From Proteobacteria bacterium CG1_02_64_396 (lineage in GTDB: Bacteria > Pseudomonadota > MNWR01 > CG1-02-64-396), in assembly GCA_001872725.1 (NCBI GenBank), contig MNWR01000081.1, positions 33,849 to 97,848 on the forward strand: a stretch of 64,000 nt of DNA, written 5' to 3'. A program made the translations under genes and the position numbers. Positions 10,394-21,256 of the stretch are shown piece after piece. Every line of letters starts with the position of its first letter. Positions within the stretch are counted from its first letter, which is position 1. The notes below the pieces were generated by a model that was not told the DNA's origin, did not search any database, and saw nothing but the letters and a program-made list of their open reading frames with translations.

Positions 10394-13300
10394 TCAACCT
10401 TCCCCCTGAGTGCCCGCCTCTTGATCGCCCGGCGGTACCGGCGCGATGTAGCCGATCAGTAGCAGCAAAACCCCCACCCCGATGAACGAAACAATTCGCG
10501 CCACCGTGCCGGTATTGGCCATGTCGACCACAAAAAGCTTAAGGACCACCATCCCGAGCAGCGTGGCGCCAACGCTCCATTGCCAGCGGATGGCCCGACG
10601 GGTGGCGAAGAGCATCAAAGCCAGGGCGCTGACGCTCCACAGCAGCGACAGCGCCGATTGCACCAGGATCGAGTGCCACAAGGGTTGAAAAGCAAAGGGG
10701 ATGTCGCCCCAGTGATGGACGCTGCGCACCACCACCGCGTTGAGCCAACCAAACCCGAGCACCGCCACAACCATCGCCCCATGGGGCCAAGGGGTCTCAT
10801 CTTGCTGCGGCATGGCCCGCCACCAAGCCAGCAGGGCGGCAAGGATCGCCACTTGGGTTAGATCCAACGGGTTGAGCAGCGGCAGATAGGGCAAGGGGGA
10901 GGGATCGCCGGGGTGGTTGATCCAGCTCGACAGACTCCAGAGCAGTCCAAGGATGGCCCAGAGAAGGGGGGCATGAACCTGATAGGTGGTGTGATGGCGG
11001 TTGAGCGGCCAGGGGAGCCAACGACGCAGTAAAGCGGGCAGGGCGATCCCCAAGGCCAGCGGCATCCCCCATCCGGCTCCTTGCCAACCGTCGCCCCAAC
11101 CGGTCCGCTCGATCTGCCAGTGCCATTCCCAGGCGATCAGCACCAGGGCGACGGTATAGCCGGTCAGGTGCCGCAACGGGGTTTGCCATGCCGTCTCTTC
11201 ACGTTCTTGGCGTAGGGCCACGTCGTACAGACTGACCAGGGCGAGCAGCCAGCCCCCCCAGCTCCAGGCGCTGCCAGGGTGGCCGCCGCCTGCGGCCATA
11301 TCCACCAGACCCCAAGCTAGGATCGGGAGCAACAGCAGGGTGGCGCGGCGCAGCGAGGGCCACGACAGGATTTGCCCCCCCCTCTCGAACAACCAGGTCG
11401 CCACGGCGATCCCCCCCACCAAGGCGCCGGGACGCGCCTCGGGGCTCAACCATTGGCTACACAGGCCATACCAGGCGCTCACCCCCACCGCCAGCGACCA
11501 CATCAATGCGGCATCGGCCAGGGGCGCTTTGGCTGTATCCCCTTGCTCGCGCAGTCGGAAGCGCAGGTAGGCGGCAACCCATCCCAGCGCGCTCCACCCC
11601 AGTGCCCACCCCTCGTGAACATGGGTCAGACACCACAGCGCCTCCCAACTGGCCAGTACCACCATGGCCAGCCAGCCGATGGCGCCGCGCAAATCCAAAA
11701 ATCCCTCCTCAGCAAGGTCGTGTTGGCGATGCAAGATCCAAAAGTGGATCGCCAACGCCACAGGCCAGACCACCCACCCCCCCCAATCCAGGGGGTGGGT
11801 GTCGCCGACCACCGCCACCCGAATGGCGCCCAAGAGGGTCAACAACACCACGAGGGTGTGCAGATGGGTGGTCCGGCGCAGTCCCGCCCAATCGAGACGC
11901 TGGGCCAGCCACTGGCTGGCTGCGAAGAGCAGACTACTCCAGGCCAGCGTGGCGGCAGGGAGGTAGTCGTGGGGGAGGATCCCCTGCCAAATCAGATGGA
12001 GCCCGCCGAGCAACCACCAGGCTGCGGCCCAGAAGCTGGTCGAGGTCGAAAGGATGTCGGGGGGGGCAAAATCGGAGTCGAGCTGGTCGCGGTAGCGGTG
12101 GTAGAGCCAACCGGTGAGCCAACCGGCCAGGGCAATAAAGCTGCAACCGAGGATGAAATCGTTGAAGAAGGGGTTGGATTCGTCGTAGCTGCCATGCAGG
12201 TGCAGAAAATAACCCGCAGCCCCCCCTTGCAGGAGCATGCCGAAGCCTCTGGCCAGGGGGCGGTTTTGCCGGATCCCGAGCCAAACCACCCCCGCCCCCT
12301 CCAGCGTCCATAGGGCGAAGGTGGGGTAGCCCTCGAAGGCGAAATAGAAGGCCAGGGTGGTGAAGGCGATGGCTAGGGCCAGCTCGCTTTCGGCCAGCAG
12401 CCGCAGCGTTTCGCGGCGCAGCAGCGCCAGCCCCAACCCCAGGTAGAGCAGTGCGGCTCCCGCCGCGCTCCAGGCCAGGGGACGCCCCTCCATCCCCTGT
12501 ACCAATCCCGCTTGCAGAGCCGCCACCGCCAAAGGGGTGCCGAACACCAACAGGCCGTCGACCCACCCCTTGAGCTCGGGAGGCTGACGCTGGGCAAACA
12601 GGATCGGAATGGCCAGATAGATGGCAAAATAGCCGATCAGGAACGGCTCCACGGTGGCAAAGTGTTCGGGACGGTACGAAAACCACCCCCAGGTCAGCGC
12701 CACGACGAAGGTGAAGAAAAAGCCGACCAGATTCAGCGCCCGCCACGACTTGAACCAGCTGACCCCCAGAATGACCAGATTGAGCAGGGTGTAATACGAG
12801 AAAAGCAGGATGTGGGTGCCGCTGCCGGTAGCGGCCAGGATCGGGGCTAGGAAGGCGCCGATCAGCCCTAGGACCGCCAGGGAGGGGGCATCCTGACGCA
12901 CCGCGAGCACCAGGGTGACCACCCCCAACGCCATGAATAGAGCAAAGGCGGCGGTGGGGCCGATCAGGATGAAGGTTTTCAGGGCGAAGTAGACATCGAG
13001 GTAAGCCAGCCCCACCCCGCCCCCTTGCAGAATCAACCCGTACAGCCGACGCCCCGCCAGCATCCGGGCTCCCCCCACCCACATGCCGACCGCAACAACC
13101 CCCACTCCGAGCAGGCGGCTCCAGGGGGGGAGGACGGCGTGGTCATAGGCGTACTTGAGCAGGAAGCCGACCCCGAAAAAGAGGATCACCACCCCCAACT
13201 TGGCCACCAGGTTTTCGCTGAGCCAGCGCGCCCAAACCGACGTCCAGCTTTCGGTGGGGGGTGTCGGCGGTTTCTGTTGGAAGGACGGGGGCGGGGTGGG

Positions 13301-13786
13301 GGTGCGCTCCTGCGGTTTGGGTGCGGTTGCGACCGGCGAAGGGGCGACCGGCGAAGGGGCGACCGGCGAAGGGGCGGGGCGGGGATCCGCCTGGCGGATG
13401 CGCGGATCGCTCGCCATGGCGGCGGTTTGCCGAGCCGGGGTTGAAGCAGTGGTACGGGGCGGCAGGGTGGAGGAGGGCGCCGCCGCCCCCCCCTCCTCTT
13501 CGACCTTGAGTCCCAAACGGGCCCGCTCCAGCCGTTCGATCCGTTTGTGGGCCTGTTCCAGCGCCCATTCCAGATGGGTCACCCGTTCCTCAAGGGTGGA
13601 GGGGGTCGATGTCGGCGAAGTGGCAAGAGGCCAGGAAACCGGGGTTGACGGAGTCTTTTCGTCCTCCCGGCCAGGGTCGAGCAAATAGGCGATGACCCAT
13701 CCCAGGAAAGCCCCGAGCAGGAGCCCAACGAGGCCCGCGACCAATAGCCCCAGTACACCACCACCCAGCGTCCACCCGATCTTCAT
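10394..13786 (-). CDS. Large polytopic membrane protein, DUF2339-like (N-terminal TM, coiled coil, Pro-rich linker, about 24 TM helices)
   Basis: ATG at complement of 13784-13786 with AGGAG 7 nt upstream. MKIGWTLGGGVLGLLVAGLV TM, coiled coil LEERVTHLEWALEQAHKRIERLERARL, PSPVA repeats, then an about 900-aa multi-TM body. Family assignment from architecture only. Confidence 0.65.
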   Translation of the reverse strand: MKIGWTLGGGVLGLLVAGLVGLLLGAFLGWVIAYLLDPGREDEKTPSTPVSWPLATSPTSTPSTLEERVTHLEWALEQAHKRIERLERARLGLKVEEEGGAAAPSSTLPPRTTASTPARQTAAMASDPRIRQADPRPAPSPVAPSPVAPSPVATAPKPQERTPTPPPSFQQKPPTPPTESWTSVWARWLSENLVAKLGVVILFFGVGFLLKYAYDHAVLPPWSRLLGVGVVAVGMWVGGARMLAGRRLYGLILQGGGVGLAYLDVYFALKTFILIGPTAAFALFMALGVVTLVLAVRQDAPSLAVLGLIGAFLAPILAATGSGTHILLFSYYTLLNLVILGVSWFKSWRALNLVGFFFTFVVALTWGWFSYRPEHFATVEPFLIGYFAIYLAIPILFAQRQPPELKGWVDGLLVFGTPLAVAALQAGLVQGMEGRPLAWSAAGAALLYLGLGLALLRRETLRLLAESELALAIAFTTLAFYFAFEGYPTFALWTLEGAGVVWLGIRQNRPLARGFGMLLQGGAAGYFLHLHGSYDESNPFFNDFILGCSFIALAGWLTGWLYHRYRDQLDSDFAPPDILSTSTSFWAAAWWLLGGLHLIWQGILPHDYLPAATLAWSSLLFAASQWLAQRLDWAGLRRTTHLHTLVVLLTLLGAIRVAVVGDTHPLDWGGWVVWPVALAIHFWILHRQHDLAEEGFLDLRGAIGWLAMVVLASWEALWCLTHVHEGWALGWSALGWVAAYLRFRLREQGDTAKAPLADAALMWSLAVGVSAWYGLCSQWLSPEARPGALVGGIAVATWLFERGGQILSWPSLRRATLLLLPILAWGLVDMAAGGGHPGSAWSWGGWLLALVSLYDVALRQEREETAWQTPLRHLTGYTVALVLIAWEWHWQIERTGWGDGWQGAGWGMPLALGIALPALLRRWLPWPLNRHHTTYQVHAPLLWAILGLLWSLSSWINHPGDPSPLPYLPLLNPLDLTQVAILAALLAWWRAMPQQDETPWPHGAMVVAVLGFGWLNAVVVRSVHHWGDIPFAFQPLWHSILVQSALSLLWSVSALALMLFATRRAIRWQWSVGATLLGMVVLKLFVVDMANTGTVARIVSFIGVGVLLLLIGYIAPVPPGDQEAGTQGEG
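13329..13373. repeat. 15-bp perfect tandem repeat x3 (GCGACCGGCGAAGGG), in-frame inside the DUF2339-like gene, encoding (PSPVA)3
   Basis: Three contiguous identical 15-mers read directly in the sequence. Minus-strand translation shows PSPVAPSPVAPSPVA. Confidence 0.85.
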
Positions 13787-14006
13787 GATCGACTCCTTGA
13801 AATTGTCTTGAGGCCGAAGCAGCCGCCCCCGCGATCTTGGGGGGTGACCTGATTCGGGGCAATGCAATGGCAGCACTCGTCACCGGCCCTTACCAAAGGG
13901 GATGCTCTTGGCTAGAATCCCGCCCCTTTTGTGCATTAGGCCCGGGGTCTCGACTTCGGACGATTAGCCTCGCCGCGACATACATTTATCTTTGGAGTGG
14001 ACATCC

Positions 14007-15179
14007 ATGAGCCAGGGTAACTTCCTCTTTACCTCCGAATCGGTTACCGAAGGCCACCCCGACAAGGTTGCCGACCGAATCTCCGATTCGATTCTGGACG
14101 CCATTCTTGCCCAAGATCCCTACGGGCGGGTCGCCTGCGAAACCCTGGTGACCACGGGTCTGGTGGTGGTGGCCGGTGAGATCACCACCAAGGCCAACAT
14201 CGATTATCCCGCCATCGCCCGCCAGGCAGTGAAGGAGATCGGCTACAACTCTTCGGCCATGGGGTTCGATTGGGAGTCGTGCGGGGTGTTGGTCACGATC
14301 GATAAACAGTCGCCCGACATTGCCCAGGGGGTGAACGAGGGGCAGGGGCTCGATCCCGACATGGGGGCGGGCGACCAGGGGTTGATGTTCGGTTATGCCA
14401 GCAACGAGACCGAAACCCTGATGCCGGCGCCGATCTATTACGCCCACCGTCTAGCCGAGCGGCAGGCGCGGGTCCGTCACGATGGCACCGTCCCCTTCTT
14501 CCGTCCCGACGCCAAAACTCAGGTCACCTTCCGCTACGAAAACCACAAGCCGGTGGCGATCGACACCATCGTCGTCTCGACCCAGCACACCCCCGAGGCG
14601 ACCCACGCCCAGGTCAAAGAGGCGGTGATGGAAGAGGTCGTCAAACCGGTGCTGGGCGAAACCGGCTTTTTGCACGCCGATACCGAGTACTACATCAACC
14701 CGACCGGGCGGTTTGTTATCGGCGGCCCCGTGGGCGACTGCGGCGTCACCGGTCGTAAGATCATCGTCGATACCTACGGCGGGTTCGGCCACCACGGCGG
14801 CGGCGCCTTCTCGGGCAAGGATCCCACCAAGGTCGACCGCTCGGCCTGCTACATGGCCCGTTATGTGGCCAAAAACATCGTCGCCGCCGGGCTGGCCGAC
14901 CGCTGCGAGGTTCAGGTCGCCTACGCCATCGGGGTCGCCAAGCCGCTGTCGGTCATGGTCAACACCTTCGGCACCGGCAAGATCGACGAAGCCCGTCTTG
15001 CTCAGATCGTGCGCGAGGAGTTCGACCTGCGTCCCAAGGGGCTGATCATGGCGCTCGATCTGCTGCGCCCGATCTACAGGCAGACCTCCTCCTATGGACA
15101 CTTCGGCCGCGAGCTGGCCGATTTCACCTGGGAAAAAACCGACCGGATCGCCTCGCTGCGCAGCCGGGCCGGACTCTGA
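14007..15179 (+). CDS. metK: S-adenosylmethionine synthetase
   Basis: [39 protein letters not shown] motifs. ATG at 14007 with GGAG 10 nt upstream; the track ORF starts 15 nt earlier. Confidence 0.9.
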
Positions 15180-15195
15180 TCCACGTTTGAGATTT

Positions 15196-15285
15196 TCCCC
15201 GGCGAGGGGCGTTGCGACGGCGGGATCTCCCGCTGCCAGGCTCGCCGGGGACCCATCCTTGTTGCAACGGCGCCCGCCAACCGAA
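15196..15285 (+). promoter_or_regulatory. Candidate SAH riboswitch in the metK-ahcY intergenic region
   Basis: Blocks GGCGAGGGGCGUUGCGAC ... CCAGGCUCGCC ... GCAACGGCGCCCGCC resemble the SAH-riboswitch consensus as recalled. Complementary pairs GGCGAG/CUCGCC and GUUGC/GCAAC, and an inner hairpin GCGGGA-UCUCCCGC. It ends just before the ahcY SD GAGGAG. Confidence 0.55.
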
Positions 15286-15297
15286 GAGGAGCATGCC

Positions 15298-16701
<1,404 letters not shown>

Positions 16702-16731
16702 GCCTAAGCCCGGTGATGATGTCGCCATTAA

Positions 16732-16761
16732 GGGCGGGTCTTCGGACCCGCCCTTTTGTTG
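16732..16761 (+). terminator. Rho-independent terminator after ahcY
   Basis: GGGCGGGTC-TTCG-GACCCGCCC stem-loop followed by TTTTGTTG. Confidence 0.75.
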
Positions 16762-16932
16762 TCGGCTGAGGGTCTGCTTCTCCGGGTTGGTAAGGTAGAT
16801 GTTGTTGTAGGGTGGATAAGCGCAGCGCATCCACCTTTTCCCTATATGGCTGCCCACCCCTGTTTTGGTGAATGCACCGTGTTGATCCACCCTATGCCAA
16901 ACCACGTTCCGCCATCTTTTTTAGGGGGTTTC

Positions 16933-18054
16933 ATGAACTGCCGCCAATTGCGCGACGACACCGTCCCCGAATCGATTCCGGCCTCCTCCCGAGCTATGGA
17001 GGTCATGCGGCAAACCGTCTCCCTGATCCACCGCCTTTCGACCCTGCCCGAATACCGCAGCGAGATTGAGCCACTGCTGCCCGAGGTGGCTCGATTCGAT
17101 CCCGGACACCACTCGGCGATGATGGGGTACGACTTCCACCTCGACGCAGACGACCCCGAGGGGGGGATGCCGACCCTGATTGAGGTCAACACCAACGCCG
17201 GCGGCATGCTCTACCTCAGCCGCTGCCTCCCCCCAGAAGGGTGGCGCGACGGACCGGTGGCGGCGATGTTCGAGCAAGAATGGGATTTATGGCGGCGGGG
17301 CCGGGGGGGGGTGTCCGGGCGTCCCGGCCTGATCGCCATCGTCGACGAGGCCCCCGAGGGGCAGTTTCTCTACCCCGAGATGCGACTGTTTCAAGCGATG
17401 TTCGAGGCGGCGGGGATTGCGACACTGATCCTGGCACCCGAGGCAATCCAAGGGGGGGCAGGGGGGCTGATCGCCCCCGACGGACGGCTTATCGACCTGA
17501 TTTACAACCGTCATACCGATTTCTATTTAGAGGAGCCGGTGATGGCGGCGATCCGGACCGCCTACCTGAATGGAGAGGTCTGCCTGACCCCAAATCCCCG
17601 AACCTATGGTTTGATCGGCGACAAGGGTCGGTTTGCTGTGTGGCGGCAAGAGGGGTTCTTGGAGGGGCTGGGCTTTACAGAGGAGGAGGGGGCGCAGCTG
17701 CGCGGGGTGATCCCCGAAACCCGATTGCTCGACGAGAGTGATCCCGAGTGGGTCTGGCAAAACCGCAACCGCTTGGTCTTCAAACCGGCGGCCCGCTTTG
17801 GCAGTCGGGGGGTCTACATGGGGCGTTCGATCTCCCGCAAAAAACTCGAAAGCCTGAGTGGTCAGAACTACTTGGCCCAACGGCTGGCCCCCCCCCACCG
17901 AGTGGCGCCTCTGAACGGGGGGGACCCCTTCAAGGCCGATGTGCGACTGGTGGCCTATCAAGACCAAGTGCTGGCGACCATGGGAAGGTTGTATCGGGGG
18001 CAGGTGACTGGATTCGGGCAGGGGGGAGGGTTCGTCTGGGTTCAGGCGTTGTAA
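16933..18054 (+). CDS. ATP-grasp superfamily ligase, glutathionylspermidine-synthetase-like (YgiC/YjfC-type) / circularly permuted ATP-grasp
   Basis: ATG at 16933 with AGGGGG upstream. Motifs DLIYNRHTDFYL, CLTPNPRTYGLIGDKGRFAVW, KPAARFGSRGVYMG, ADVRLVAYQDQVL match GSP-synthase-type ATP-grasp signatures. Family-level call only. Confidence 0.5.
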   Translation: MNCRQLRDDTVPESIPASSRAMEVMRQTVSLIHRLSTLPEYRSEIEPLLPEVARFDPGHHSAMMGYDFHLDADDPEGGMPTLIEVNTNAGGMLYLSRCLPPEGWRDGPVAAMFEQEWDLWRRGRGGVSGRPGLIAIVDEAPEGQFLYPEMRLFQAMFEAAGIATLILAPEAIQGGAGGLIAPDGRLIDLIYNRHTDFYLEEPVMAAIRTAYLNGEVCLTPNPRTYGLIGDKGRFAVWRQEGFLEGLGFTEEEGAQLRGVIPETRLLDESDPEWVWQNRNRLVFKPAARFGSRGVYMGRSISRKKLESLSGQNYLAQRLAPPHRVAPLNGGDPFKADVRLVAYQDQVLATMGRLYRGQVTGFGQGGGFVWVQAL

Positions 18055-18084
18055 CCCCCCACAGGGTGGTCCCACCCGATGGAG

Positions 18085-18270
18085 CCCGGATTTTTCATCA
18101 ATATTGTTCTGCCCTGGCTTGTTTCTCGCCTCAAGGCGCCTACTTATTGGTGTCCGCACTGGGGATTTTGCAAAAACAGTCCGTATGAACGACGACGCTC
18201 CGTTTTTGCAAAATCCCCAGTGCGAACAAGCTCCTACGCGATCATCGGGCAAATTGATGAAAAATCCGGG
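18085..18270. repeat. 186-bp nested palindromic element in a convergent intergenic region
   Basis: Outer arms CCCGGATTTTTCATCAAT (18085-18102) and ATTGATGAAAAATCCGGG (18253-18270). Inner perfect 23-bp arms CGCACTGGGGATTTTGCAAAAAC (18155-18177) and GTTTTTGCAAAATCCCCAGTGCG (18202-18224) around a 24-nt loop. Mirrored peptide fragments appear in ORFs on both strands. Confidence 0.7.
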
Positions 18271-18891
18271 TTAGATCGTGGTAATGCCGACCTCTGCGTC
18301 GGCCCTGGCGGTGACCTCGTTGAGTGCCGCCGCCACCCTGGCTTTGGCCTGCTCTTTTGAAAGCCCCCCGAGATCGACCGGATCCCCCCAAACAAAGACC
18401 CCGCGACCGAAGGGGAGCGGCAGGAAGTGACGATCCCAAGAGCGCAACTGGCGAAAGCGACTGGTGGCGAAGGCGAAGGGGACAATCGGTAACTTGTAGC
18501 GTTGGGCAATCTCGACCGCCCCCTGGGCCACGGAGCGACGTGGACCGCGAGGGCCGTCGGGGGTGATCCCGAGGGAAACCCCCTCTTGAGCCGAACGCAG
18601 CAACCCTCGAATCGCCCCGGCAGACCCCTTGCTCCCCGACCCTCTAATCGCCTCGATGCCGAAACGGTGGAAAAAGGTCGAGACGATCTCGCCATCGCGG
18701 CTGTTGCTGATGACGCAGTGGGTGGGGCGGCGCGGTGCGAAAAGGGGGAACAGGCTCAACCGCTCGTGCCAAGCGACGATGACAACCTGACCTTCGGGAG
18801 GGGCGCCGAGTATCCGCCAGCGCACGGTGTGGCGAATCAGCCAGACATACAGGGCGATTAGCCGGGCTGTGGTGCCGGGTGATAGGGTCAT
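18271..18891 (-). CDS. DUF374-family lysophospholipid acyltransferase-like protein (paralog 2)
   Basis: 206 aa. Conserved with the upstream paralog (AWHERLSL...ISNSRDGE...GSGSKGSAGAIRGLL...GITPDGPRGPRR...LPFGRGVFVWG), the family usually linked to kdtA/msbA. Confidence 0.65.
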   Translation of the reverse strand: MTLSPGTTARLIALYVWLIRHTVRWRILGAPPEGQVVIVAWHERLSLFPLFAPRRPTHCVISNSRDGEIVSTFFHRFGIEAIRGSGSKGSAGAIRGLLRSAQEGVSLGITPDGPRGPRRSVAQGAVEIAQRYKLPIVPFAFATSRFRQLRSWDRHFLPLPFGRGVFVWGDPVDLGGLSKEQAKARVAAALNEVTARADAEVGITTI

Positions 18892-18899
18892 GGAGGCGG

Positions 18900-19523
18900 C
18901 TAGATGGTGACGATGCCGACCGCCGCGTCGGCCTGGGCGGTGGTTTCGTTCAGCGCCTGGGTCACCTTGGCTTGGGCCTCCTCCTTACTCAGCCCATCCA
19001 GATCGACCGCTTCCCCCCAGACAAACACCCCGCGACCGAAGGGTAGCGGGACGAAGTGGCGATCCCACGCCTTGGTCACCTGCCTGAAACGGCTGGTGGC
19101 ATAGGCCATGGGAACCACCGGGATGTGGTATCGCATCGCCACCTCAAGGGTCCCCTGGGCCATTTGACGCCGCGGTCCGGTTGGGCCGTCGGGGGTAATA
19201 CCCAGGCTGAACCCCTCCTGGGCCGCCTTGAGCAATCCCCGGAGTGCGCTGGCGCCACCTCGGTTGCCCGATCCCCGCACCGATTCGATGCCGAAACGAC
19301 GCATAAACAGAGTAACCAGCTCCCCATCTTTATGCTGGCTGACGATGCACTGGGTGGGGCGTTTGGGGGTGAAGAAGGGCCACAGCGAAAGCCGTTCGTG
19401 CCAAGCAACGATGATGGCCTGCCCCTCGGGTGGGGTGCCGGTGACCTGCCAGCGTTGGGTCTTGAAGGACAGCCAAAGGTAGGCGGCCAGCACCGTTTCG
19501 ATCACCCTGGGATGAATCTTCAT
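18900..19523 (-). CDS. DUF374-family lysophospholipid acyltransferase-like protein (paralog 1)
   Basis: 207 aa, roughly 60-65% identical to the 18271..18891 product by eye. Start overlaps the msbA stop (ATGA). Confidence 0.65.
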   Translation of the reverse strand: MKIHPRVIETVLAAYLWLSFKTQRWQVTGTPPEGQAIIVAWHERLSLWPFFTPKRPTQCIVSQHKDGELVTLFMRRFGIESVRGSGNRGGASALRGLLKAAQEGFSLGITPDGPTGPRRQMAQGTLEVAMRYHIPVVPMAYATSRFRQVTKAWDRHFVPLPFGRGVFVWGEAVDLDGLSKEEAQAKVTQALNETTAQADAAVGIVTI

Positions 19524-21256
19524 GAAGTAGCCGCCTGTTCGGCGCGAAATTGCATGTGGTACAGCCCGGCGTAGGCGCCATTGCGGGCCAGAAGTTCGTC
19601 GTGTTTGCCCTCTTCGACGATCTCGCCGCGCTGCATCACCACGATCCGGTCGGCGTGGCGGATGGTCGACAAGCGGTGGGCGATCACCAGGGTGGTGCGC
19701 CCCACCATCAGCCGATCAATCGCCTGCTGCACCATCGCTTCCGATTCGCTATCGAGGGCCGATGTCGCCTCGTCGAGAATTAAAATCGGGGCATCCTTGA
19801 GTAGCGACCGGGCGATGGAGACCCGCTGCCGCTGCCCCCCGGAGAGTCGCCCCCCCCGCTCCCCGGCCAGCGCTTCGAATCGCTCGGGAATTTGCTCGAT
19901 GAATTCCAGTGCGAAAGCGTCGGCGGCGGCGGCGCGCACCTGCTCGGGCGAGACGTCGTCACGACCGTAGGCGATGTTCTCGTGCAGGGTTTCGTTGAAG
20001 AGGATCACCTCTTGAGTCACCAGGGCGATGCCGCCGCGCAGCGATTCAAGCTCCATGTCGCGGATGTCGACCCCCCCGATTTCGATGCTCCCCCCCTGGG
20101 GGTCGTAGAAACGGGGAATCAGGTTGGCCAAGGTCGACTTGCCCGAGCCCGATGCCCCTACCAGCGCCACCACTTCCCCTTGCCTGACGGTCAGATCGAT
20201 CCCCTTGAGCGCCTCCTCCTTGCTGTCGGGGTAGGCAAAACGCAGCCCCTTGATGGCAATGTCGCCGGTGGGACGGTTCAAAAGGCGCTGCCCGGTGTTG
20301 GTTTCGGGGGGGCTATCGATGATGGCGAACACCCGGTCAGCGGCCGCCAATCCCTCATGCATCTTGTTGTTGAAGGTCGACAGCCGTTTGACCGGCTCAT
20401 AGACCATCAACAGAGCGGTGAGGAACGAAAAGAAATTGCCGGGGGTGGTGGTGCCGGCGATGACGTTGCTGCCGCCGTAGTAAACCACCAAGGCAATACC
20501 GAAGGAGGCAAACATCTCAACAATCGGGGAAGAGGTGGTGTTGTAGGTCTCGGTCTTGATGCCCAGGCGGGCCAGCTCGTCGACCATCTTGCGGAAACGT
20601 CCCGCCTCGTGCCTCTGCATGCCGAAGGCTTTAACAATTCGGATGCCCCCCAGGGTTTCTTCAAGGCGGGAGGTCAACATCCCCATGTTTTGGGCGGTTT
20701 GCTGAGCAATCTTTTTGATGCGCCTGGCGATGATGACCACCGGCATCATCGCCAGGGGGAAGACGATCAGGGTGTAAAAGGCGAGCAGCGGATCGCGGTA
20801 GATGACCAGGGCGACCAGAAACAGGGCGGTGAGCAGGTCGCGCACTGCGCCGGTCACCAGCATGGTTAACCCCGCCTCGATGGTCAGCACGTCATAGGTG
20901 ACCCGGCTCATCAATTGCCCCTTACCCTGACGGTCGATGACCGTCATGGGTAGGGAGAGGATGTGGGTGTACAGGTCGCTACGCAGCGCGGCGATCACCG
21001 AGTGCCGGGTTTTGGCCATCAACACACCCTGCCCGAAATAGGCCACCCCCTTGGTCGTGTAAATGGCGATGACGATCCAAGGGAGAATCACCAGCGCTTG
21101 CTCGTTCTTGGCGACAAAAACGTCGTCGAGAATGGGCTGAATGACGAAGGCGGTTCCAGCGGTGGCGGCGGCCACCACCACCATGCAGAGCATGGCGAGG
21201 ATCAGGGTCGAAACGTGGGGGCGCAGATACTGGAGCAGGCGGCGCAGGTGGTTCAT
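19520..21256 (-). CDS. msbA: Lipid A / lipid export ABC transporter, fused permease-ATPase (MsbA-like)
   Basis: Six N-terminal TM helices; Walker A GASGSGKST; signature LSGGQRQRVSIARSLL; Walker B ILILDEATSALD. 578 aa. Confidence 0.8.
   Translation of the reverse strand: MNHLRRLLQYLRPHVSTLILAMLCMVVVAAATAGTAFVIQPILDDVFVAKNEQALVILPWIVIAIYTTKGVAYFGQGVLMAKTRHSVIAALRSDLYTHILSLPMTVIDRQGKGQLMSRVTYDVLTIEAGLTMLVTGAVRDLLTALFLVALVIYRDPLLAFYTLIVFPLAMMPVVIIARRIKKIAQQTAQNMGMLTSRLEETLGGIRIVKAFGMQRHEAGRFRKMVDELARLGIKTETYNTTSSPIVEMFASFGIALVVYYGGSNVIAGTTTPGNFFSFLTALLMVYEPVKRLSTFNNKMHEGLAAADRVFAIIDSPPETNTGQRLLNRPTGDIAIKGLRFAYPDSKEEALKGIDLTVRQGEVVALVGASGSGKSTLANLIPRFYDPQGGSIEIGGVDIRDMELESLRGGIALVTQEVILFNETLHENIAYGRDDVSPEQVRAAAADAFALEFIEQIPERFEALAGERGGRLSGGQRQRVSIARSLLKDAPILILDEATSALDSESEAMVQQAIDRLMVGRTTLVIAHRLSTIRHADRIVVMQRGEIVEEGKHDELLARNGAYAGLYHMQFRAEQAATS

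Follow-up and report, generated by a model that had tools for sequence, protein, structure and literature searches.

The 118-nt spacer between metK and ahcY of an uncultured groundwater bacterium almost certainly holds a genuine SAH-class riboswitch aptamer, with the P1, P2 and P4 helices of the class pseudoknot. The reading that we favour for the locus as a whole, with a probability of about 0.8, is that of a SAH aptamer serving as an ON switch, probably at the level of translation and probably inside a bicistronic metK-ahcY mRNA. SAH is an inhibitory by-product of SAM-dependent methylation, and as it accumulates it would bind the aptamer and lock the P4 helix, a step that would raise the expression of ahcY directly downstream. 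If the riboswitch does lie inside a bicistronic mRNA, translation of ahcY could answer SAH independently of metK. The spacer RNA is an unremarkable member of an established RNA class at its usual target; it adds one more case of a well-known riboswitch in front of its canonical target, and the type of control that it represents is already known. Its significance is mostly one of annotation, namely the assignment of a regulator to the ahcY gene of this bacterium.

Identification of the aptamer

The spacer occupies positions 15180-15297 of the window, by which we mean the whole 64-kb stretch of DNA that was analysed, and both flanking genes lie on the + strand. Upstream of it, metK (14007-15179, 390 aa), which encodes methionine adenosyltransferase (SAM synthetase), runs from an ATG at 14007 to a stop codon ending at 15179 and matches TIGR01034 with 600 bits against a cut-off of 309; a metK of identical length is also called in the source metagenome contigs. 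Downstream of it, ahcY (15298-16701, 467 aa), which encodes adenosylhomocysteinase (SAH hydrolase), begins with the ATG at 15298-15300, has a stop codon ending at 16701 and matches TIGR00936 with 636 bits against a cut-off of 498, and its N-terminus aligns with those of relatives. These boundaries and protein family matches agree with a preliminary description of the locus, which had given the same two genes and the same spacer length.

The entire window was searched on both strands with 4227 Rfam families. The SAH riboswitch family, RF01057, matched at 15198-15282 (+) with 59.8 bits against a gathering score of 37 and an E value, calculated for the whole window, of 1.6e-8, values which place the match far beyond chance; it spans model positions 1-78 of 78. 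A covariance model of our own (R1, described below) scores the same aptamer at 62.1 bits. The end of the RF01057 model is 16 nt from the ahcY start, with this SAH-recycling gene directly downstream, as expected of a class that precedes such genes (ahcY, metF or metH). No other family among the 4227 passed its gathering score in the 64 kb. In the region 13600-16900 no family besides RF01057 was found at E<=1, and at E<=5 the only further matches were two snoRNA/scaRNA matches at chance level; at this threshold no RNA element was detected upstream of metK, and neither the SAM/SAH riboswitch (RF01727) nor the SAM riboswitch classes gave a match. The latter were likewise absent at their gathering scores from the whole 64-kb window. 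The preliminary description had called a SAH riboswitch from three sequence blocks, and the call was correct: the blocks are present, GGCGAGGGGCGUUGCGAC at 15201-15218, CCAGGCUCGCC at 15236-15246 and GCAACGGCGCCCGCC at 15264-15278, and a cmsearch match above the gathering score, the lack of which would have spoken against the call, was obtained.

Architecture and covariation of the aptamer

The aptamer core is enclosed by P1, a 9-bp helix formed by 15197-15205 with 15242-15250 (CCCCGGCGA / UCGCCGGGG). Within it lies the P2 hairpin, 15218-15224 with 15229-15235 (CGGCGGG / CCCGCUG, 7 bp, loop AUCU), followed by the conserved junction J2/1 (CCAGGC, 15236-15241), which leads into the 3' strand of P1. 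The pseudoknot helix P4 joins the 5' side of the P1-P2 internal loop, at 15207-15212 (GGGCGU), to the 3' tail, at 15270-15275 (GCGCCC), and between P1 and the P4 3' strand runs a variable linker (15251-15269). All of these elements are on the + strand. The conserved core nucleotides of the class (GAGG.GCG.UGC, CCAGGCUC and AACGGCGC) are present in the window, which keeps 17/17 of the columns that are invariant in a 22-sequence alignment, where AGGCT is among the invariant elements. Departures from the Rfam consensus are either compensated or common variants; in P4, for example, the consensus GAGCGC/GCGCUC has become GGGCGU/GCGCCC, a double change from A-U to G-C. Compared with shuffled sequences, the fold of the whole spacer has no extra stability (z = 0.06), as expected for a pseudoknot in a GC-rich RNA.

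Relatives were retrieved with the AhcY protein from species-representative genomes, giving 80 loci, of which the nearest is that of a Mariprofundaceae MAG (90% AhcY identity); the others come mostly from Zetaproteobacteria, Sedimenticola, Thiotrichaceae, Sideroxydans, Burkholderiaceae and similar organisms. RF01057 was found above its gathering score at 61/80 loci, with 62 matches in all, and the RNA is directly upstream of ahcY at 59 of the positive loci and upstream of metK at the other 2. The covariance model R1 was built from 22 RF01057 matches and regained the same set, giving a structure-registered alignment of 63 sequences. Across this alignment, 90.8% of cells are paired in P1, 92.6% in P2 and 98.1% in P4, with compensatory changes in 6/7, 6/6 and 5/6 pairs, respectively, so that 17/19 pairs of the three helices taken together show double changes. 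When columns were shuffled, 0/500 controls reached the observed values for P1, P2 and P4, and when the 3' partners were slid by 1-3 columns, pairing fell to 32-43%. The conserved structure that the preliminary description had anticipated in related spacers is thus borne out, both by the presence of the RNA at 61 of the 80 ahcY loci and by the covariation of P1, P2 and P4.

Two of the three pairings proposed in that description correspond to these helices, GGCGAG/CUCGCC to P1 and GCGGGA/UCCCGC to P2. The second needs amendment at its inner end, where the proposed A-U pair would leave a loop of 2 nt; the true P2 is CGGCGGG/CCCGCUG. The third, GUUGC/GCAAC, can form in the window, but its pairing extends to just 61.9% of cells and no compensatory pair was seen (62 distinct relatives in the 63-sequence alignment), which marks it as an accident of this particular sequence and not a helix of the family, and P4 is preferred to it. 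Two other candidates were set aside. An extension of P4 by pairing alignment columns 16-162 would match an invariant U with a column (162) that varies between G, U and C, and a nested GAGC/GCUC alternative returned by RNAalifold is essentially devoid of covariation.

Gene order among relatives

In 39/80 relatives metK lies directly upstream of ahcY, and in 26/80 the order is metK-riboswitch-ahcY, as in the window. Five further metagenome relatives, with AhcY identities of 87-90%, share this order. In the window the aptamer begins 18 nt past the metK stop codon, and at 14/27 loci this distance is <=40 nt. The arrangement with very short gaps is widespread, occurring in Zetaproteobacteria-like MAGs and in MAGs of sulfur- and iron-oxidising Gamma- and Betaproteobacteria, and this recurrence implies control by a riboswitch inside an operon. 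The AhcY and the spacer of the window recur, identical, in several groundwater metagenome contigs (six independent contigs for the spacer) and in the NCBI MAG 'Alphaproteobacteria bacterium CG_4_10_14_0_2_um_filter_63_37'.

Among the 39 metK-ahcY pairs, the spacer has no riboswitch in 11, and in 2 (L035 and L056) a riboswitch stands before metK instead. Short-spacer pairs without a riboswitch are seen at L012, L014, L016, L021, L022, L023, L028, L032, L034, L059 and L077, and two metagenome relatives (L091 and L092) have a 27-nt metK-ahcY spacer that also lacks it. The presence of the riboswitch is therefore patchy among related metK-ahcY pairs whose AhcY is 77-87% identical to that of the window.

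A separate observation concerns copies of the SAH riboswitch upstream of metK, which are found at L035:1620-1702 (55.9 bits), L056:1594-1676 (63 bits) and L080:1561-1639 (57.8 bits), all above the Rfam gathering score. These loci are metK-ahcY pairs in Thiotrichaceae, Thiothrix and Pseudomonadota MAGs, and L080 carries two copies, one before metK (1561-1639) and one before ahcY (2872-2968). A 2014 survey stated that SAH riboswitches do not control metK (PMC4239095), a statement to which the three copies are exceptions.

Transcription of metK and ahcY

A consensus scan of 13600-18400 returned a single sigma-70-like match, TTACCA-17-TAGAAT at 13890-13918 (+), in the intergenic region that separates metK from its divergent upstream neighbour. 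Being a match to the consensus only, it is a candidate promoter for a metK-ahcY unit. The unit is likely to end at a strong intrinsic-terminator-like hairpin at 16730-16755 (+), which has an 11-bp stem with 8 G-C pairs and is followed by TTTTGTTGT. Neither metK nor the spacer gave a terminator-like or sigma-70-like match in the consensus scan. A bicistronic mRNA is the simplest reading of the 18-nt metK-aptamer gap, the lack of terminator-like and promoter-like sites in the spacer and the terminator past ahcY. On these sequence features, metK and ahcY are likely to be co-transcribed, with the riboswitch inside the bicistronic message. The preliminary description suggested that metK and ahcY form one transcription unit in which SAH would induce ahcY, and the arrangement makes this a reasonable inference.

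At some related loci the gap between metK and the aptamer is longer and contains promoter-like hexamers that can be picked out by eye (TTGAAT...TATACT at L043, TTGACA... at L018 and TATAAT at L071), which indicates that independent ahcY promoters exist among these loci. By the same logic, the ahcY transcript of the window could start from its own promoter in the 3' end of metK, in which case the RNA would be a conventional 5'-UTR riboswitch. We consider this unlikely, because the window gap is just 18 nt, the sigma-70 scan gave 13890-13918 as its only candidate and none inside metK or the spacer, and no terminator follows metK.

Expression platform

The Shine-Dalgarno (SD) sequence of ahcY, GAGGAG at 15286-15291 (+), ends 6 nt before the start codon and starts 10 nt after the P4 3' strand, and its position matches that of the GGAG in relatives. 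The consensus scan found no intrinsic terminator between the aptamer and the ahcY start codon. This absence, together with the closeness of the SD to P4, makes it fairly probable that the output of the riboswitch acts at translation. By analogy with the published behaviour of the class, from which both SAH binding and the direction of the response are taken, the riboswitch probably regulates ahcY as an ON switch.

How such a switch can be built is evident from the relatives. There, the P4 3' strand, together with what follows it up to the start codon, forms a hairpin in which the final nucleotides of this strand are base-paired to the SD or to the SD-AUG region. The sequestor is CCGUUCA/UGAACGG at L088, L089, L090, L093 and L003; L064 and L076 have CCAUUCA/UGAAUGG, differing from it by a compensatory change, whereas in the Zetaproteobacteria-like loci L001, L087, L006 and L018 it is CUCAUAC/GUAUGAG. 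These hairpins have predicted stabilities of -7.7 to -16.5 kcal/mol. In the relatives, P4 and the sequestor are mutually exclusive, which fits the requirement for an ON switch.

The window does not have the relatives' sequestor hairpin, its equivalent segment folding at only -3.9 kcal/mol. Complementarity between the P4 tail and the RBS is at chance in the window (z = 0.17) and significant in 8 relatives, and the P4 3' strand and tail were rejected as anti-SD in the window on this account. Another complementarity involves the linker between P1 and P4, in which UCCUU (15256-15260) and UUG (15262-15264) can pair with the SD region at 15282-15290. The resulting hairpin, 15256-15290, has a predicted stability of -10.1 kcal/mol, or -5.1 kcal/mol when the P4 3' strand is blocked, and the linker-SD complementarity is matched by 57% of shuffled linkers. 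The linker UCCUU is the only candidate anti-SD in the window, and its assignment to that role is weakly supported and rather less likely than not. Our best guess for the OFF state is that the linker UCCUU.UUG would pair with the SD region in the 15256-15290 hairpin, the apex of which would contain the P4 3' strand, such that formation of P4 would remove about half of the stability of the hairpin.

Nested-structure modelling of SD accessibility, by partition functions for apo and 'holo' states under 18 boundary choices, put the probability of the SD being unpaired at ~0.2 with or without P4 and gave no consistent unmasking of the SD; the outcome depends strongly on the boundaries and, as the pseudoknot is not representable, is treated as uninformative. 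Similarly crude modelling across 36 relatives gave mixed results. It is a somewhat doubtful proposition that the platform has been rewired, with the ancestral P4-tail/SD sequestor lost and the UCCUU of the otherwise idle P1-P4 linker serving as anti-SD instead in an operon-internal translational switch. If this were true, a single mRNA would support constitutive synthesis of SAM synthetase together with production of SAH hydrolase as required. What the comparison does bring out is that expression platforms vary between close relatives while the aptamer stays constant.

The same observations could be accommodated if the aptamer were intact and the platform decayed, so that SAH would be bound with little or no regulation and ahcY would be translated constitutively from the metK-ahcY mRNA. 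Such decay would fit with the loss of the sequestor that is found in the nearest relatives having the same P4 variant (L088, L089, L090, L093 and L003, with the compensatory form at L064 and L076), with a replacement anti-SD that is statistically indistinguishable from chance, and with two-dimensional modelling that yields no ligand-dependent unmasking of the SD. The aptamer itself, however, is undecayed: every invariant position is kept and the A-U to G-C change in P4 is compensated, a pattern that speaks for ongoing selection for ligand binding. Moreover, six independent metagenome contigs carry the spacer unchanged, and the 15256-15290 hairpin loses ~5 kcal/mol when P4 forms, much as the canonical sequestors would on a rough estimate. 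Collectively these points make a decayed platform improbable. Many translational riboswitches also act through Rho, and control at the level of transcription or of what becomes of the mRNA, such as Rho-dependent termination or the access of RNases to early ahcY, could explain why no convincing SD-sequestering switch could be modelled, but this is highly improbable given that an intrinsic terminator is absent between aptamer and ahcY, that the SD is 10 nt from P4 and that relatives clearly use sequestration of the SD or RBS.

Comparison with known systems

SAH riboswitches bind SAH tightly and selectively, up-regulate ahcY and adopt an LL-type pseudoknot fold, according to three papers that deal with the class (PMC7057144, PMC3905868, PMC4239095). 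In its account of class behaviour, for which it cites Wang 2008 and Edwards 2010, PMC7057144 gives an SAH affinity of about 32 nM and a preference for SAH over SAM of roughly 1000-fold. The window element resembles this class in its family (RF01057), its LL-type P1/P2/P4 pseudoknot, its core and its target, ahcY (PMC7057144, PMC3905868, PMC4239095). Known members of RF01057 include the ahcY/sahH leaders of Pseudomonas, the metH leader of Dechloromonas aromatica and the Ralstonia solanacearum aptamer, for which there is a crystal structure (3NPQ). In contrast to members that are stand-alone 5' UTR elements, the aptamer of the window lies 18 nt past the stop codon of metK, and unlike the D. aromatica metH leader it has no terminator platform.

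Close parallels are the metK-riboswitch-ahcY loci of Zetaproteobacteria, Sedimenticola, Sideroxydans and similar MAGs (L001-L006, L064, L076, L087-L090 and L093), which have the identical gene order and short gaps. The window differs from them in having no covarying OFF hairpin between the P4 tail and the SD or RBS.

Joint control of metK and ahcY is also exercised by the SAM-Chlorobi motif and within the SahR regulon (PMC2864571, PMC4239095). The SAM-Chlorobi motif is an unrelated RNA located upstream of the whole metK-ahcY operon, whereas the sensor in the window has only ahcY downstream, and SahR is a protein transcription factor where the window sensor is an RNA. The SAM/SAH riboswitch (RF01727) invites comparison as a metK-linked RNA with SAH as a ligand, but it is an OFF switch found upstream of metK in Rhodobacterales (PMC6411933).

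Neighbouring sequences

Several minor features adjoin the unit. A two-codon mini-ORF (AUG CCA UGA, 15293-15301) starts with an AUG that is out of frame, and its stop codon overlaps the ahcY start (AUGA); with just 1 nt between the SD and this AUG at 15293, it is unlikely to be used. Upstream, metK is divergent from a gene for a predicted DUF2339 membrane protein (10394-13876, - strand, 1160 aa), and the 130-nt intergenic region that the two share carries the only promoter-like site near the operon.

Just past the ahcY terminator, a palindromic REP-like sequence, GGTGGATAAGCGCAGCGCATCCACC, lies at 16811-16835; no second copy was found in the window with 3 mismatches allowed. The ORF directly after the terminator (16934-18054, + strand, 373 aa) has no Pfam or NCBIfam match and is called as a gene beside ahcY in those source metagenome contigs that reach that far. 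The genes downstream of ahcY are unrelated to the metK-ahcY pair. They include tandem DUF374 paralogues (18271-18891 and 18900-19523, - strand) and, adjoining these, a gene for an MsbA-like ABC exporter with ABC_membrane and ABC_tran domains (19520-21256, - strand); the stop of this gene and the start of the adjacent DUF374 gene have 4 nt in common.
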